Assembly (NCBI GenBank): GCA_934702375.1
Contig: CAKUYE010000001.1
Coordinates: 11,275-75,274, forward strand
Reading direction: 5' to 3'
Length of the DNA stretch: 64,000 nucleotides
Source: an uncultured Bacillota bacterium
Lineage (GTDB): Bacteria; Bacillota; Dehalobacteriia; UBA7702
Shown here: positions 9,031-12,981 of the stretch, piece by piece
Layout of the letters: each line of letters starts with the position of its first letter
Position numbering within the stretch: position 1 is the stretch's first letter
Notes under the pieces: generated by a model
The model's input: only the letters and a program-made list of their open reading frames with translations
Database searches by the model: none
What the model was told of the DNA's origin: nothing
Program-made: the position numbers and the translations under genes

Positions 9031-9316
9031 TGCTTTTTCTTCAAAGGGATAAAACTTTACCGACTCACTCACTGGATCACATCCTTTCCTGGGGCTTTTC
9101 TTTTGTTTTCTATCGCATCTCGCGATTCTGATACAATTATAGCTCTTTGCCGCTGTAAACATTGTCACAATACCGAAGCCAAACAAAGAATTTTCCGACG
9201 GTATCTGCAAGTATCCGGCAAAATACCCATAGCATTTTCGTCACATTTCCATTGACAAACCCATCTTCCCTGTTCAGGGCAGAGTCAAGGAACGACATTA
9301 TTTCAAAATGCGAAAA

Positions 9317-9878: not shown

Positions 9879-10547
9879 ATGCCCATATTGTTACTGATGA
9901 CATTAAAAACCGGCGCTCTGTTCTTACTCACTCTGGGATGTTTTCGTCTGATGGGCTATCGCTCCCTGGGAGATATGGAACCTCTGGATTACGTGATCGT
10001 TTTGGGGATCGGCGAAATCATGGGATCACCATTAAGTGCCCCGGAAGATCCCATTTACGGCGCGGCCATTGCCATTGTTACACTCACTCTTCTCCAAATG
10101 ATCCTTTCCGCCCTTTATTCCAAAATTCCCAAACTGGGTAGAATGATGGAAGGCGGACCGATTCCGGTGATTCGTGACGGCAAGATCATCGAAAAGAACC
10201 TGAGCCGCAATCGCATTGACACCGATTCCATTATGGAGGAGCTGCGCATCAAAGGCTGCCGGGATGAAAGAGATGTAGACGCAGCTTATCTGGAGCCAAG
10301 TGGACGTTTTAGCGTGATTTTAAAAAACGAAGCATCCCCCATTACCCCGCGCTATCTGGGAGAAAACGCATCTTTGCTCCTAGTGGAACATGGGGAAATC
10401 CGCACCGCCGATTGGGAACGATGTGATGCTCCCAAAGAAGAGATCCTTCGCTTTTTAGAAGGCGAAAAAATAGAATCCTGGCAAGAAATCAAGACTCTTC
10501 TTTACAAAAACGGCGCTTTTTACATGGAACGAAAAAAAAATTCGTGA
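9879..10547 (+). CDS. DUF421 (YetF-like) membrane protein
   Basis: 222 aa; N-terminal TM segments then soluble domain, YetF-family pattern; RBS AAAGGAGC upstream. Confidence 0.55.
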   Translation: MPILLLMTLKTGALFLLTLGCFRLMGYRSLGDMEPLDYVIVLGIGEIMGSPLSAPEDPIYGAAIAIVTLTLLQMILSALYSKIPKLGRMMEGGPIPVIRDGKIIEKNLSRNRIDTDSIMEELRIKGCRDERDVDAAYLEPSGRFSVILKNEASPITPRYLGENASLLLVEHGEIRTADWERCDAPKEEILRFLEGEKIESWQEIKTLLYKNGAFYMERKKNS

Positions 10548-10576
10548 TTTTCTGATTTTTTTTCGTAAAACCTATT

Positions 10577-10605
10577 GACTTTTCGGCAAATGTATGCGAT
10601 AATTA
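10577..10605 (+). promoter_or_regulatory. sigma-A type promoter for the tRNA genes (TTGACT-17-GATAAT)
   Basis: TTGACT and GATAAT hexamers separated by 17 nt, about 10 nt upstream of the tRNA-Met 5' end. Confidence 0.55.
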
Positions 10606-10615
10606 GTATCACTGT

Positions 10616-10691
10616 GGCGGTGTAGCTCAGTGGTTAGAGCACTCGGTTCATACCCGGGGTGTCAAGGGTTCAAATCCATTCACCGCTACCA
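10616..10691 (+). tRNA. tRNA-Met (anticodon CAT), CCA encoded
   Basis: Cloverleaf by eye: acceptor GGCGGTG/CACCGCT, D-arm GCTC-AGTGGTTA-GAGC, anticodon loop TTCATAC, T-loop TTCAAAT, 3' ACCA; one G-A mismatch in T-stem; Met versus initiator versus lysidine-Ile not resolved. Confidence 0.8.
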
Positions 10692-10694
10692 CAT

Positions 10695-10771
10695 GGCGCG
10701 TTGGAGAAGCGGCTGAACTCACCAGCCTTTCACGCTGGCATTCATGGGTTCGAATCCCATACGCGTCACCA
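10695..10771 (+). tRNA. tRNA-Glu (anticodon TTC), CCA encoded
   Basis: Acceptor GGCGCGT/ACGCGTC, anticodon stem CCAGC/GCTGG with loop CTTTCAC, T-loop GGTTCGAATCC, 3' ACCA. Confidence 0.85.
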
Positions 10772-11040
10772 TATAAAAAAAGCTCATCGTCAGATGGGCT
10801 TTTTTTATATGATACACTTAATCCGGAGGGGATTCGAAGTTTATGCCCTTCAGGGTAAATCCCATACGCGTCACCATATAAAAAACACTCATCTCATGAT
10901 GAGTGCTTTTTTGTTTATGATACACTTGATCCAAAAGGGATTCAAAGTTTATACCCTTTAGGGGAAACCCCACACGCACTGATGATAAAAGGGGCTGTTG
11001 CAAAATAGATGAGAAGTCATCTATAGAGCAACAGCCTCTT
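10750..11040 (+). repeat. tandem array of three about 105-bp units, each a degenerate tRNA-Glu 3' end (T-arm and acceptor) plus hairpin terminator plus ATGATACACTT..GGGATTC.AAGTTTAT.CCCTT.AGGG spacer
   Basis: AATCCCATACGCGTCACCATATAAAAAA from the genuine tRNA-Glu 3' end recurs at about 10857 and, degenerated (AAACCCCACACGCACTGATGATAAAAGG), at about 10961; each copy is followed by its own hairpin and T-run. The third hairpin (10990-11040) is a bidirectional terminator for hisIE. Confidence 0.7.
10773..10808 (+). terminator. rho-independent terminator after tRNA-Glu
   Basis: A-run, 8-bp hairpin AGCTCATC-GTCA-GATGGGCT, then TTTTTTT. Confidence 0.75.
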
Positions 11041-11043
11041 TCG

Positions 11044-11685
11044 TTATCTCTTTTGACGGGAAAGCATTTTTTTTGCCACATCATCCCAATTCATACCCTG
11101 TTCATAGAGGAGAACGGTCATATGATAGATAAGGTCAGCGGCTTCCCATTGAAGTTCATCGTAGGCGTGGTTTTTAGCGGCAATGACACATTCCGTGGCT
11201 TCCTCACCCACCTTTTTACAAATTTTATCGACACCCTCGGTAAGGAGATAGTTAGTATAAGAACCTTCCACCGGATTCTTTGCCCGTTCGGCCACAACGC
11301 TGTATTCCTGAGCCATGGCCGGTCCGATAGTGAGAGAATCTTCCGCCGGCTGCAAAGCACCATCTTTCCACTGCCGATAGAAGCAAGTTTTATTTCCGGT
11401 ATGGCAAGCCGCACCGGTCTGTTCAATCTCCAACAGAATCGTATCTCCATCGCAATCCAACTTCAAGGATATCAATTTTTGTTTATTGCCGCTGGTCTCC
11501 CCTTTTTGCCACAGGCATTGGCGAGAACGGCTAAAGTAGGTGCAGTATCCTGTTTCCAGGGTTTTCGTCAAAGATTCTGCATTCATATAGGCCATCATTA
11601 CCACCTGACCACTGCAAACATCATAGGCAATGGCGGGAACCAGGCCTTTTTCATCCCATTTAATTTCATTTATCAATGCATTCAT
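11044..11685 (-). CDS. hisI: bifunctional phosphoribosyl-AMP cyclohydrolase / phosphoribosyl-ATP pyrophosphatase
   Basis: 213 aa; N-terminal HisI cyclohydrolase region and C-terminal HisE MazG-like region. Confidence 0.85.
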   Translation of the reverse strand: MNALINEIKWDEKGLVPAIAYDVCSGQVVMMAYMNAESLTKTLETGYCTYFSRSRQCLWQKGETSGNKQKLISLKLDCDGDTILLEIEQTGAACHTGNKTCFYRQWKDGALQPAEDSLTIGPAMAQEYSVVAERAKNPVEGSYTNYLLTEGVDKICKKVGEEATECVIAAKNHAYDELQWEAADLIYHMTVLLYEQGMNWDDVAKKMLSRQKR

Positions 11686-12406: not shown

Positions 12407-12981
12407 AGCACCCCCTTGGTAGAAAGAATCTCCGTCCCTTCTACGGCAACGGCGGCTTTCAGCCCATGACCAAAGGCTTTAAACAACCCCTCGGCCATAT
12501 GATGATTGTTTTTTCCATAGCGTAAATTAAGATGTAGCGTCATCCCGGCCTGATCCGCCAAAGCCCGGAAAAATTCCTCCGTCATTTCCGTGGGATATTC
12601 CCCGATCCGCTCTACGGTAAAATCAGCATGAAAGACAAGATAACTGCGACCGGAAAGATCGATTACCGCTTCGGCCAGAGTCTCATCCATGGGAATCAAA
12701 GCACTGCCATAGCGGTGAATCCCGGCTTTATCACCGAGAGCCTCTTTCAATGCACAACCCAAAACAATACCGGTATCTTCAATGGAATGGTGAGCATCCA
12801 CATAGAGATCTCCCCGACATTGCAAAGAAAGATCAAAACCGCCGTGACGGGCAAAAAGGGTCAGCATATGATCAAAAAAACCAATGCCGGTATTCACTTC
12901 CGCCTTGCCGCTGCCGTCCAGATTCAAGGTCAGAGCGATATCCGTTTCCTTTGTTTTACGGTTTACCGATGCTGTTCTCAA
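12403..12981 (-). CDS. hisB: imidazoleglycerol-phosphate dehydratase
   Basis: 192 aa; RKTKETDI start and DxHH metal motifs of IGPD. Confidence 0.88.
   Translation of the reverse strand: MRTASVNRKTKETDIALTLNLDGSGKAEVNTGIGFFDHMLTLFARHGGFDLSLQCRGDLYVDAHHSIEDTGIVLGCALKEALGDKAGIHRYGSALIPMDETLAEAVIDLSGRSYLVFHADFTVERIGEYPTEMTEEFFRALADQAGMTLHLNLRYGKNNHHMAEGLFKAFGHGLKAAVAVEGTEILSTKGVL

Follow-up and report, generated by a model that had tools for sequence, protein, structure and literature searches.

A tRNA-Glu tail array in an uncultured Bacillota bacterium appears to belong to a family of tRNA 3′-end-linked hairpin units in Clostridia

The 3′ ends of tRNA genes are classic landing sites of genomic islands, and where a short tRNA tail is found in duplicate it is, as a rule, written off as the scar of such an event. 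In a 64,000-nucleotide stretch of DNA from an uncultured Bacillota bacterium (hereafter the window), the tail of a tRNA-Glu gene recurs behind the working gene, which raises the question of whether these copies are scars or something else. An initial annotation read them as the footprint of serial integration and excision or as slippage of a terminator module. Here we describe the array, compare it with related loci (numbered with L) and weigh the explanations for it. A conserved module between the tails points to a small mobile or functional element and not to simple decay, and the array seems to be one instance of a widespread and apparently undescribed Clostridia family of tRNA 3′-end-linked units.

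The array follows a two-gene operon on the + strand. A sigma-70-like promoter (10575–10603, +; TTGACT, 17 nt, TG-n-GATAAT, with 10/12 matches and a TG extension) lies directly 5′ of tRNA-Met (CAU; 10616–10691, +; 61.5 bits), after which comes the genuine tRNA-Glu (UUC; 10695–10771, +; 59.7 bits), both recognized by ARAGORN and Rfam. The tRNA-Glu gene has the T-arm ATGGG-TTCGAAT-CCCAT and an encoded CCA, and is identical to genes in L021, L022, L045 and L052. Core 1 (10753–10780, +), the copy that belongs to the working tRNA, consists of tRNA-Glu positions 58 to 76 (AATCCCATACGCGTCACCA) and TATAAAAAA, and runs into hairpin T1 (10770–10811, +), whose 19-nt arms (10770–10788 and 10793–10811) are 95% complementary around a 4-nt loop. 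With an A-run on its 5′ side and a T-run on its 3′ side, T1 looks like a bidirectional terminator of the tRNA operon. Spacer 1 (10812–10828, +), homologous to the spacers of other tRNA-Glu units, leads to the first copy of a motif (10829–10863, +; GGGATTCGAAGTTTATGCCCTTCAGGGTAAATCCC; 61 bits, E=1e-12). Core 2 (10858–10885, +) begins within this motif, taking its initial 6 nt from the 3′ strand of the P1 stem, and is a 28/28 copy of core 1: the 28-mer AATCCCATACGCGTCACCATATAAAAAA (tRNA bases 58–76 plus 9 nt) recurs here exactly. The same order is then repeated, with a terminator-like hairpin T2 (10880–10911, +; arms 10880–10893 and 10898–10911), spacer 2 (10912–10936, +) and a second, partly decayed motif copy (10937–10971, +; GGGATTCAAAGTTTATACCCTTTAGGGGAAACCCC; 51.6 bits), directly followed by core 3 (10966–10990, +; AACCCCACACGCACTGATGATAAAA), a variant or decayed tRNA tail. 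Hairpin T3 (10981–11048, no strand assigned; 32-nt arms at 10981–11012 and 11017–11048, 78% complementary) closes the array and overlaps the hisIE stop at 11044. It is probably a bidirectional terminator common to the array and the convergent hisIE ORF (11044–11685, −), whose terminator the distal tail abuts.

The recurring unit is thus about 105 nt of tRNA bases 58–76, hairpin, spacer and motif, placed after tRNA-Met and tRNA-Glu (10616–10771, +). By blastn within the window, unit 1 (10753–10857, 105 nt) and unit 2 (10858–10965, 108 nt) are 85% identical over 107 nt (E=2e-26), and the gap between cores is about 77–80 nt. These values bear out the initial annotation in placing recurring tails at 10750–11040 behind the genuine tRNA-Glu, with a conserved spacer of about 50 nt and increasing divergence, the third tail having diverged most. 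Tandem Repeats Finder reported no repeat in the array, probably because of indels in the hairpins, which we regard as a limit of the tool and not as evidence against the repeat; the repeats were then established by repeat finding and blastn. Taken alone, core 3 is statistically weak, as 32/2000 shuffles score equally well, and we accept it because strain L002 has the same variant tail at the same position, as does the relative L048, in both of its units. In the flanks examined (spoIIE, a DMT-family gene, a DUF421 gene and hisIE-A-B-C-D) there is no integrase gene, and no element genes lie between the window repeats, in agreement with the earlier remark that no integrase remains and that hisIE comes next.

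What distinguishes this array from a set of scars is the content of the spacer between the tails, a 35-nt bulged hairpin with the consensus GGGAUUCGAAGUUUAURCC, 3 to 85 nt, and GGUAAAUCCC. It is present in about 40 loci, drawn from JGI metagenomes and at least eight MAGs (Oscillospiraceae, Ruminococcaceae, ‘Clostridiales’ and ‘Peptococcaceae’), and lies behind tRNAs for Ser (five anticodons, UGA, GGA, CGA and GCU among them), Arg (ACG, CCG), Glu, Lys and Gln. Its presence behind at least nine other tRNA species tells against the initial reading as plain prophage or ICE scars or as slippage of a terminator module. The motif lies on the tRNA's strand in all loci, and a tRNA 3′ end always comes next. 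In two pattern scans, that tail was the neighbor's own in 29/30 distinct loci with a neighboring tRNA on the contig, L042 being the exception. The motif-fused copy covers the last 19 bases of the cognate tRNA (positions 58–76, CCA included); the duplicated block starts at T-loop A58 in every case, with the minimum identity running from A58 to CCA (L033, L034, L017), and the duplicated target is 19–60 nt long across loci. At the roughly 40 related loci there are no genes between the repeats and no integrase at the tRNA-proximal end.

The motif is nearly invariant across genera while flanking hairpins and spacers have diverged, as shown by comparison of the window with L021, L048 and L052, in which the DUF421 protein is 67–70% identical. 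The two L048 units differ at 2/51 positions in the motif and variant tail and at about 25% of positions in the spacers. However, both collecting scans demanded an exact match over most of the motif, so this conservation is overstated because the patterns imposed much of the invariance; pattern-independent confirmations are limited to L048, L052, L053, L055, L042(-) and the second copies within arrays. The motif turned up nowhere in IMG/VR, whether scanned with motif patterns or with the tail of tRNA-Glu, nor in INPHARED phages or PLSDB plasmids, and we reject a phage or plasmid origin as represented in these collections. Rfam 15 over 10000–11600 scored only the two true tRNAs, with nothing relevant at E<=10, and gave no match in related loci either; this also disposes of a whole-tRNA pseudogene. 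The literature searched holds no published description of the motif, its literal sequence included.

The fold of the motif is simple. In copy 1, a 6-bp P1 (GGGATT/AATCCC) is followed by a 9-nt bulge (CGAAGTTTA) and by P2 (TGCCC/GGGTA), closed by the loop TTCA. Across loci the base of P2 is conserved and a tip of 3–85 nt stands on this fixed base, so that the parts read GGG-A-UUCGAA (T-stem and T-loop-like), GUUUAURCC, variable tip, GGUA and AAUCCC, and then the tRNA 3′ strand, after which, in most units, comes a hairpin terminator. Pairing occurs in 97.7% of cells, and upper P2 pairs show compensatory changes. Three cells fail to pair: the terminal P1 position of L042, which is A-C, and two positions within decayed copies. 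We do not claim an RNA structure as proven because the covariation statistics are weak (3 compensatory cells, with 1/500 shuffles reaching the observed score) in a motif that hardly varies. The pair at the base of P2 is G-U in 16/23 sequences and A-U in 6, with further wobbles of U-G in 2 and of G-U within P1 in 2. Some tips are cUUCGg tetraloops (L015, L023), and many are C-GNA-G triloops. The motif consensus contains neither attC boxes (RYYYAAC ... GTTRRRY) nor a dif-like XerC/XerD site.

The sequence just 5′ of the motif suggests that the hairpin was once longer. In L053, the position equivalent to spacer 1 holds GACGCGTATGGG, the exact complement of the tRNA 3′ strand. This left arm is exactly reverse-complementary to tRNA positions 54–72, and the two arms, about 95 nt apart, would pair as a stem of 17 bp (−49.5 kcal/mol, z=−4.9). 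The target-duplex stem is exact in L053 and in the third, partial L052 unit, and elsewhere complementarity is residual; in a permutation test, cognate arms scored above non-cognate ones (p=0.006 and p=0.03), which is suggestive only. At tRNA G-U pairs, the left arm agrees with the complement of the 3′ strand rather than with the 5′ strand of the tRNA itself (L053, L029, L035). Because a decayed complement of the tRNA 3′ strand sits just 5′ of the motif, we infer that the ancestral unit is a long hairpin whose stem reproduces the 3′-end duplex of the tRNA gene, in the form seen in L053, and spacer 1 in the window is probably a decayed left arm of this kind. The outer stem has decayed in most copies, and the inner motif is invariant even where the tail has decayed (L048). 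Two other readings of the spacers were discarded. AT-rich hexamers after T1 that might pass for a promoter before the motif are the 3′ arm of the long hairpin, and a minus-strand tRNA fragment is contradicted by the sequence 3′ of TTCGAATCCC (minus strand), which is not conserved between loci.

Related genomes show the locus in two states. DUF421-tRNAMet-tRNAGlu orthologues lack the unit in L045/46, L047 and L049, and carry it in the window, L021, L048, L052 and L053. Since the orthologous loci of close relatives (L045–L047, L049) are without it, the unit is dispensable. The comparison with relatives that the initial annotation proposed therefore does yield empty and occupied sites, although what occupies the site is a hairpin unit with no mobile genes nearby. 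By the same annotation, a shared structure in relatives that never held a mobile element would indicate a functional structure, and the relatives agree with this in part. The integration footprint it described has likewise survived in part: the repeated block, A58 to CCA and a hairpin, is of att type, as in two genuine elements at tRNA-Glu, but the repeats lie about 80 nt apart and no integrase accompanies them. One of these elements is the tRNA-Glu phage L013, in which an endolysin is followed by TTCAAATCCCATACGCGTCACCA, a hairpin and an integrase without a tRNA, marking an attP with the same A58 start; the other, L011, has tRNA-Glu, a hairpin and an integrase. The arms of the L013 attP are unrelated to the motif.

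Several observations suggest that units have moved. Behind one tRNA, the order of unit and integrase island varies, with the island on the far side of the unit in L030, L035 and L055 and nearer the tRNA in L016, L028 and L038; as either order occurs, the units behave as independent insertions at the same site. A direct link to the adjoining island (L030, L035, L055) was rejected, as the island homologues L055–L058 have no second motif-bearing end and L057, a homologue of the island beside the motif in L030 and L055, lies at tRNA-Met without a motif. In L042 the units are only 55 nt long, consisting of tail, 8 nt and motif without a terminator, and one unit behind tRNA-Ser(UGA) bears a Ser(GCU)-type tail, implying movement or exchange between loci. 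Within the species of the window, two strains that differ by about 1.5% overall differ by 17% in unit 2, which indicates that the site is recombinationally active. In strain L002, T2 keeps its stem with a different loop and one pair more, and motif copy 2 departs from the consensus at two positions only, at its very end, where CT stands in place of TC (54.4 bits).

We favor, at a probability of about 0.4, the reading that the unit is a miniature hairpin-att insertion module targeting the tRNA T-loop. A non-autonomous module would be inserted into the T-loop of the tRNA gene through site-specific recombination, with a putative recombinase acting in trans. It would give the tRNA a replacement 3′ end and terminator and displace the earlier 3′ end downstream; short arrays would then grow by repeated insertion or by unequal crossing-over between direct repeats, and their distal members would decay. 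In the window, the presumed order of insertions would leave tRNA-Glu followed by core 1, T1, spacer and motif, next by core 2, T2, spacer and motif, and last by the old variant core 3 with T3. The attachment site may be a folded hairpin used in single-strand form, by analogy with two known systems. In the CTX-phage attP(+), a pair of inverted half-sites separated by about 90 nt folds into a mimic of dif, and the integron attC has a conserved base, an unpaired bulge and a variable terminal structure. In the same way, the two inverted arms of the L053 unit, about 95 nt apart, would reproduce the target duplex when folded (17 bp, positions 54–72), the stem base and asymmetric bulge are conserved below a 3–85 nt tip, and the units are strand-specific and stand head-to-tail like cassettes. 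Unlike those sites, the units target the tRNA T-loop and not dif or attI, have no XerCD-type or attC consensus, and are linked to no IntI, Xer or other enzyme, so that this mechanism is wholly a proposal from architecture. Also consistent with an insertion module are the reality of the repeat in every assembly of the species, one motif behind many tRNAs with each cognate tail starting at A58 as in the phage attP, the empty and occupied tRNA-Glu loci, the units on either side of islands, the foreign-type tail and strain-variable unit 2, and the hairpin with its variable tip and target-copying arm.

The insertion module also resembles other miniature elements. Like MITEs, REP/BIME with RAYT and IS200/IS605-derived PATEs, the units are tiny, hairpin-forming, present several times per genome and intergenic behind genes, with conserved ends around a variable or deleted interior, a conservation that a cognate enzyme would explain. 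Unlike them, the units occur strictly at tRNA 3′ ends in one orientation and are linked to no transposase; unlike MITEs, they have no short target-site duplication, 19–60 nt of target being duplicated instead, and their inverted ends are just 6 nt long (GGGATT/AATCCC, doubling as tRNA sequence), tRNA-derived arms apart. The insertion reading has to face several facts. We found no recombinase tied to the motif and no autonomous motif-carrying element (one integrase family was examined and showed no specific link), nor is the motif in IMG/VR, INPHARED or PLSDB. Conservative insertion requires a correct tRNA-specific 3′ end for each unit, and the coupling to at least nine tails is left unexplained. 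The same host-type hairpin on either side of the motif in four loci fits local duplication equally well, an invariant motif beside a decayed outer stem resembles purifying selection more than dead scars, the P2-base counts of G-U and A-U are as expected of a + strand RNA, and the apparent invariance comes largely from the search patterns.

Some of these points favor a small RNA, the main rival reading and in our view a somewhat less likely one. Transcription that reads through from the tRNA operon, or starts at a weak promoter of the unit's own, would produce a mimic of the tRNA 3′ end, made of a 5′ bulged hairpin with a UUCGA T-loop-like pentaloop, a single-stranded T-stem/acceptor 3′ strand with CCA, and an intrinsic terminator. 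Such an RNA might, for instance, serve as a decoy or compete for a factor that recognizes the elbow or the 3′ end of the tRNA, or it might pair with the tRNA 5′ strand; the DNA repeats would be a by-product of the gene's origin. The order of hairpin, about 20 nt of single strand and terminator would suit an intrinsically terminated sRNA gene with a structured body, and wobbles compatible with the + strand only and the cUUCGg tips of some units also speak for an RNA. In the terminators, it is the pairing alone that is preserved (window T1 vs T2, window T2 vs L002 T2, L048 T′ vs T″), suggesting that the hairpins are still in use, while the motif is almost invariant; the contrast between motif plus tail and spacers in L048 agrees, and the unit is kept at the same locus across genera where mobile genes are absent nearby. 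Yet there is no + strand promoter between T1 and the motif, and none is conserved in the spacers upstream of the motif; a weak minus-strand promoter-like site (10945–10917) is present only in the decayed motif copy. The terminator is missing after the tail in L034, L027 and L042, the unit is missing from orthologous loci of close relatives, and the many C-GNA-G tips are typical of stable DNA hairpins. Above all, a small RNA leaves unexplained the fusion to at least nine tails, always in cis to the cognate tRNA, and would still require mobility at the DNA level.

Comparison with known RNAs is similarly divided. Units share with tRNA-like or minihelix RNAs (YrlA, the tmRNA domain, 3′ETS sponges, theta/HDV-like RNAs) a T-stem, a UUCGA T-loop-like element, an acceptor 3′ strand and CCA, and with tRNA-adjacent RNAs a position directly 3′ of a tRNA, on the same strand, in gut Firmicutes; unlike them, the units have no Rfam match, and the acceptor 5′ strand has decayed in most copies. 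Theta/HDV-like ribozymes adjoin phage tRNAs (PMC10879173). The units are not of this type, since they lack P1.1, the hairpin at the P3 position ranges in length from 3 to 85 nt, the partner of G1 is C instead of U, the motif neither abuts CCA nor lies within a few nt of it, and Rfam gives no match. Hammerhead, pistol and twister ribozymes were set aside because their conserved cores are absent and Rfam again gives no match.

Ordinary att scars, the original explanation, now seem improbable. Here, prophages or ICEs would have integrated serially at tRNA-Glu and been lost by internal deletion, leaving the tRNA-proximal terminator and the attR-proximal arm. Tyrosine-integrase elements that cross over in the T-loop of tRNA genes (Williams' sublocation classes; Islander database, PMC4383910) produce attL/attR duplications, tandem ‘accretion’ arrays among them. 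The units share with these a direct repeat that starts in the T-loop, an intact tRNA-adjacent copy with its own terminator, decaying distal copies and both empty and occupied sites; decay is greatest in the copy farthest from the tRNA, as expected of serial insertion. Real islands (L011, L013, L028, L030) use the same cores, the tRNA-Glu phages L011 and L013 also have their own terminator, and integrase islands are common at these tRNAs (L028, L030, L055). By contrast, the units have 50–110 nt and no integrase or other gene between repeats, and their element-side arm is one constant structured motif over at least nine tRNA specificities, untraceable to any phage, plasmid or viral contig searched and unrelated to the L013 attP arms. 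Scars would need identical deletion end-points and the same 35-nt arm in dozens of genomes and at nine or more tRNAs, do not account for the 55-nt units of L042, and, if neutral, would not be expected to stay invariant between hosts at 60–70% protein identity.

Purely local tandem duplication of the tRNA tail and terminator, by slippage or unequal crossing-over and with neither mobility nor function, is less probable still. It fits head-to-tail units, identical successive units in L022, L024 and L020, and the same host-type hairpin on both sides of the motif in L015, L025, L037 and L043, and unequal crossing-over does alter copy number once two direct repeats exist. This is a likely route of array expansion, but it accounts neither for the origin of the first unit nor for motif conservation: junctions would be locus-specific, yet the inserted 28–35 nt are the same behind different tRNAs and in different families, and no simple tandem repeat or minisatellite (none was reported by Tandem Repeats Finder) would have a central motif common to unrelated loci and tRNAs. 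As a complete explanation it is refuted by motif identity across tRNAs and genomes. Finally, a collapsed or chimeric assembly, also considered in the initial annotation, has a negligible chance, for although tRNA-Glu is a repeat troublesome to assemblers, as contigs break or switch there (three contigs of the species, L003, L005 and L008, end inside it, and L010 joins it and the array to different upstream sequence with tRNA-Lys in place of tRNA-Met), seven independent metagenome contigs of the species, from different studies and assemblers, agree on the same 495–497-nt three-tail layout with strain-level substitutions, and relatives have homologous arrays.

We tentatively propose that the units are a new, so far unannotated class of element, either T-loop-homing miniature elements, whose folded-hairpin attachment site would copy the 3′ duplex of the tRNA gene, or cognate-tRNA minihelix-like small RNAs, kept across gut, rumen and anaerobic-digester Clostridia. 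Software that maps islands is affected, as the real islands in L030, L035 and L055 adjoin a pseudo-tail and not the tRNA itself, and so is annotation downstream of tRNA operons. What was taken for a scar contains a strongly conserved structured module that is repeated behind many tRNAs of gut and rumen Clostridia, which are abundant and for the most part uncultured. As a mobile hairpin-att module, it would be the smallest unit so far described that integrates site-specifically at tRNA genes, and it might lead to a recombinase that recognizes its target in folded copy, with potential use in programmable integration; as an RNA, it would represent a new family of tRNA 3′-end mimics.

The tRNA operon of the window begins at a promoter-like site (10575-10603, plus strand) and encodes tRNA-Met(CAU) (10616-10691, plus strand) and tRNA-Glu(UUC) (10695-10771, plus strand), with the DUF421 gene on one flank (9879-10547, plus strand) and hisIE of the convergent his operon on the other (11044-11685, minus strand). 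The initial annotation described an array of decaying tRNA-Glu tails with hairpins and spacers between tRNA-Glu and hisIE, and this was borne out in all particulars. The first tail, core1 (10753-10780), comprises tRNA-Glu positions 58-76 plus TATAAAAAA and overlaps hairpin T1 (10770-10811). A spacer (10812-10828) then leads to a 35-nt bulged hairpin, referred to here as the motif (10829-10863), which is fused to core2 (10858-10885), a 28/28 match to core1. Hairpin T2 (10880-10911) and a second spacer are followed by a partly decayed second motif (10937-10971), core3 with a variant tail (10966-10990), and the long hairpin T3 (10981-11048), which overlaps the hisIE end. In a search within the window, units 1 and 2 were 85% identical over 107 nt (E=2e-26), while Tandem Repeats Finder run over the array did not report it. 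Core3 by itself is a marginal match to the tRNA tail (32/2000 shuffles equal its score); its variant, ATACGC.TG.A.CGAT, is present at the same place in strain L002 and in the relative L048 (L numbers denote related loci fetched for comparison).

For a Glu tRNA, this tRNA-Glu has an unusual D-arm (GAGAAGCGGCTGAACTC), which recalls class II tRNAs, and it contains a G2-U71 pair. Relatives with neighbouring DUF421 proteins at only 60-74% identity have the same gene, with at most one base changed. A minus-strand promoter-like site (10945-10917; TTGAAT, 17 nt, TATCAT; 9/12 matches) is directed at the tRNA and is built from the decayed second motif and its spacer. At the equivalent place intact unit 1 has only TTCGAA, 18 nt, TATCAT, and the site is probably fortuitous.

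Scanning one genome per species in GTDB with 22 nt of the spacer (GGGATTCRAAGTTTATRCCCTT) gave 12 loci in 8 MAGs labelled Oscillospiraceae, Ruminococcaceae, Clostridiales/Clostridia and Peptococcaceae, and a looser pattern added 18 loci from JGI metagenomes. In both scans every match extends as ...GGGTAAATCCC, an extension that the first pattern did not demand, and in every match GGGTAAATCCC is followed by 13 nt that form the 3′ acceptor strand and CCA of a tRNA. Where a tRNA gene is present just upstream the tail is its own 3′ end, with the exception of the Ser(UGA) unit of L042. The motif stands behind tRNA-Ser(UGA) (L015, L017, L025, L043), tRNA-Ser(GGA) (L023, L031, L040), tRNA-Ser(CGA) (L024, L033, L034), tRNA-Ser(GCU) (L042), tRNA-Arg(ACG) (L019, L020, L035, L037, L055), tRNA-Arg(CCG) (L018), tRNA-Glu (L021, L022, L048, L052, L053), tRNA-Lys (L029) and tRNA-Gln (L032). 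The T-arm GGGTTCGAATCCC is common to all of these tRNAs, and the motif lies on the tRNA strand without exception among the loci found, a collection subject to the ascertainment bias of exact-pattern scans. A covariance model of 23 distinct copies recovered only two copies in the 64-kb window (61 and 51.6 bits). Motif-pattern scans of IMG/VR, INPHARED phages and PLSDB plasmids returned no motif, no Rfam family matches it, and a literature search that included the literal motif sequence as a query found no description.

The motif consensus is GGGAUUCGAAGUUUAU-R-CC[tip]GGU-R-AAUCCC. The predicted fold comprises P1 (GGGAUU/AAUCCC), a 9-nt bulge on the 5′ side (CGAAGUUUA), P2 (U-R-C-C.../...G-G-U-A), which would stack on P1 via the continuous 3′ strand, and a highly variable tip. 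The shortest tips are tri- or tetraloops (TTCA, TTCG, GAA, GCA, GGA, TATA), and the longest reach 26, 59 or about 85 nt (among L022, L020, L052 and L053). Standard pairs occupy 97.7% of all cells; upper P2 pairs show compensatory changes from C-G to G-C or U-A, and at the base of P2 16 sequences have a G-U pair and 6 an A-U pair. Because TTCGAA is palindromic, the 5′ half can be read as the reverse complement of the tRNA's TTCGAATCCC or, equally, as a direct copy of T-stem and T-loop (GGG-A-UUCGAA), in which case the motif amounts to a T-arm interrupted after A59 by ~28 nt or more.

The stretch directly 5′ of the motif, the left arm, resembles the complement of the tRNA 3′ strand. In L053 the match is exact (GACGCGTATGGGATT; 17-bp stem, -49.5 kcal/mol, z=-4.9), as it is in the third, partial unit of L052, and six further loci retain a recognisable arm with a ~2-nt deletion (L029, L038, L018, L035, L036, L023). 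A permutation test scored cognate arms above non-cognate ones (p=0.006), and did so again without L053 and with one representative per lineage (p=0.03), a preference that we regard as no more than suggestive. In loci whose tRNA contains a G-U pair (L053, L029, L035), the arm follows the 3′-strand complement rather than the 5′ strand of the tRNA itself. Given this complementarity, the ancestral unit would appear to have been a long hairpin with a stem that copies the acceptor/T-stem duplex of the cognate tRNA gene.

To compare relatives at the tRNA-Met/tRNA-Glu locus, as had been proposed, we fetched the orthologous region (spoIIE, DMT-family gene, DUF421 gene, tRNA-Met, tRNA-Glu) via DUF421 homologues. 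Both states were found. Units are absent from L045/L046 (74% protein identity), L047 (67%) and L049 (63%) and present in L021 (70%), L048 (67%; two units, with the variant tail after both), L052 (68%) and L053 (60%). Between these genera the spacers drift, and of the hairpins only the pairing is kept. The L048 locus was found independently of motif patterns, and its motif is that of the window bar a compensatory P2 extension; its two units differ at 2/51 positions of motif and tail and at 5/20 of the spacers. Against strain L002/L007 the window shows 20 differences in 10879-10992 (~115 nt, 17%) over a background of ~1.5% across 3.2 kb, and the second motif, decayed in the window, is nearer consensus in that strain. 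This hotspot suggests gene conversion or turnover, not neutral drift. Another contig of the species, L010 (790-2851), has identical hisIE, array and tRNA-Glu, with tRNA-Lys(UUU) in place of tRNA-Met immediately 5′ of tRNA-Glu and then a Peptidase_S24 (CI/LexA-like) gene. Its identity to the window stops exactly at tRNA-Glu base 1. A second tRNA-Glu locus, a rearrangement or a chimera of assembly could each explain this contig; a further three contigs of the species break within tRNA-Glu.

Ordinary integrase islands also occupy unit-bearing tRNAs, in either order: distal to motif-core2 in L030, L035 and L055, and proximal, with a decayed core ahead of the unit, in L016 and L038. In L028, likewise proximal, an island is integrated within the anticodon loop. 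Thus, the units act as occupants of the shared site in their own right. An ORF fragment in L030 carries the tyrosine recombinase signature R...HxxR...Y. A link sought between the motif and this integrase family was not established. L042 has 55-nt units of nothing but tail, 8 nt and motif, and its unit behind tRNA-Ser(UGA) bears the tail of the nearby tRNA-Ser(GCU), implying exchange between loci.

One family of islands has a tyrosine integrase and arm-type repeats of the form TGACCCA(A/C)AC (L030:3676-4401; L035:205-420; L055:12700-12918, minus strand). In all three genomes it directly follows the pseudo-tail linked to the motif of tRNA-Arg(ACG) instead of the tRNA gene, so that island-mapping tools expecting a tRNA at the junction would misplace attL. 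L055 also has a ~65-nt direct repeat (9130-9197 and 12680-12747; GGGGTTTTATTTGTTA.TCCTTCGTGTTGTT.ATACATTTCCCC) around a 3.5-kb segment with a lipase/SLH gene, a truncated integrase and a DUF6076 gene; the repeats may bound a further inserted element. Downstream of the tRNA-Glu unit in L053 (2590-2790) are two copies of a ~45-nt repeat (ATCAATCAGGGGGATTCTTCGTCACTTCGTTCCCCGGAATGACAG). Directly after the last tail copy and hairpin, L016 (3394-3587), L017 (732-804) and L026 (6910-6987) carry a large quasi-palindromic region in which TGAAAT/ATTTCA (or ATGATAT/ATATCAT) separates one small hairpin from the next and which Rfam calls Gut-1 RNA (RF01706; 50-61 bits, over the gathering score), on both strands in L016. 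A region of L028 (oriented 10390-10560) is similar in look, and the window has no Gut-1 RNA. Gut-1 has no known function and, to our knowledge, its location beside tRNA-tail arrays has not been noted before.

The same structured motif is joined directly to positions 58-76 of the local tRNA, is present or absent at orthologous sites, and forms short head-to-tail arrays in which the distal members have decayed. We hypothesize, with a probability of roughly 0.4, that the unit is a miniature non-autonomous module that inserts at the T-loop, probably via a folded hairpin. The unit would recombine into the tRNA gene at the T-loop, probably using as its recombination site a top-strand hairpin folded so as to imitate the target duplex. 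Insertion would give the tRNA a new 3′ end and terminator and displace the old 3′ end, and arrays would grow through re-insertion or unequal crossing-over. The proposed site would thereby work in the manner of CTX-phage attP(+), which mimics dif, and of integron attC. Such a module accounts for the A58 boundary, inverted arm, variable tip and strand specificity, as well as for the arrays, decay gradient and empty sites. It does not account for the coupling of one motif to nine or more tails. Tentatively, the array motif may represent a new class of element or RNA.

The main alternative, somewhat less probable, is a function at the RNA level, the RNA having a terminator, a 5′ hairpin with a UUCGA that resembles a T-loop, and a single strand mimicking the tRNA 3′ end. 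In favor of this reading, the motif is near-invariant even where the tail has decayed, wobble usage is consistent with the plus strand, and hairpins are preserved via compensatory change. However, a promoter was sought and none was found, some units are missing terminators, and close relatives do without the unit. The RNA function and the insertion module are not exclusive. Much less likely than either are the remaining explanations. Ordinary prophage or ICE scars, proposed in the initial annotation, are improbable. The att-type reasoning held, since real integrating elements bring along a block of identity that begins in the T-loop and has a terminator of its own: the L011 phage carries tRNA-Glu, hairpin and integrase and targets the same tRNA-Glu tail, and the L013 phage carries an attP (endolysin ... 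TTCAAATCCCATACGCGTCACCA, hairpin, integrase) without the tRNA. The arms of both phages are unrelated to the motif. Pure replication slippage, also raised initially, seems more doubtful still, and an assembly artefact is contradicted by seven independent metagenome assemblies encoding identical HisIE that share the same 495-497-nt intergenic layout and therefore confirm the original observation.

The duplication itself belongs to a known type, in which a tRNA 3′ end is duplicated in the manner of an att site, and its content is a conserved module, undescribed as far as these searches reach. With a conserved motif and strain-level divergence across 10879-10992, the site is therefore conserved in content and dynamic in state.
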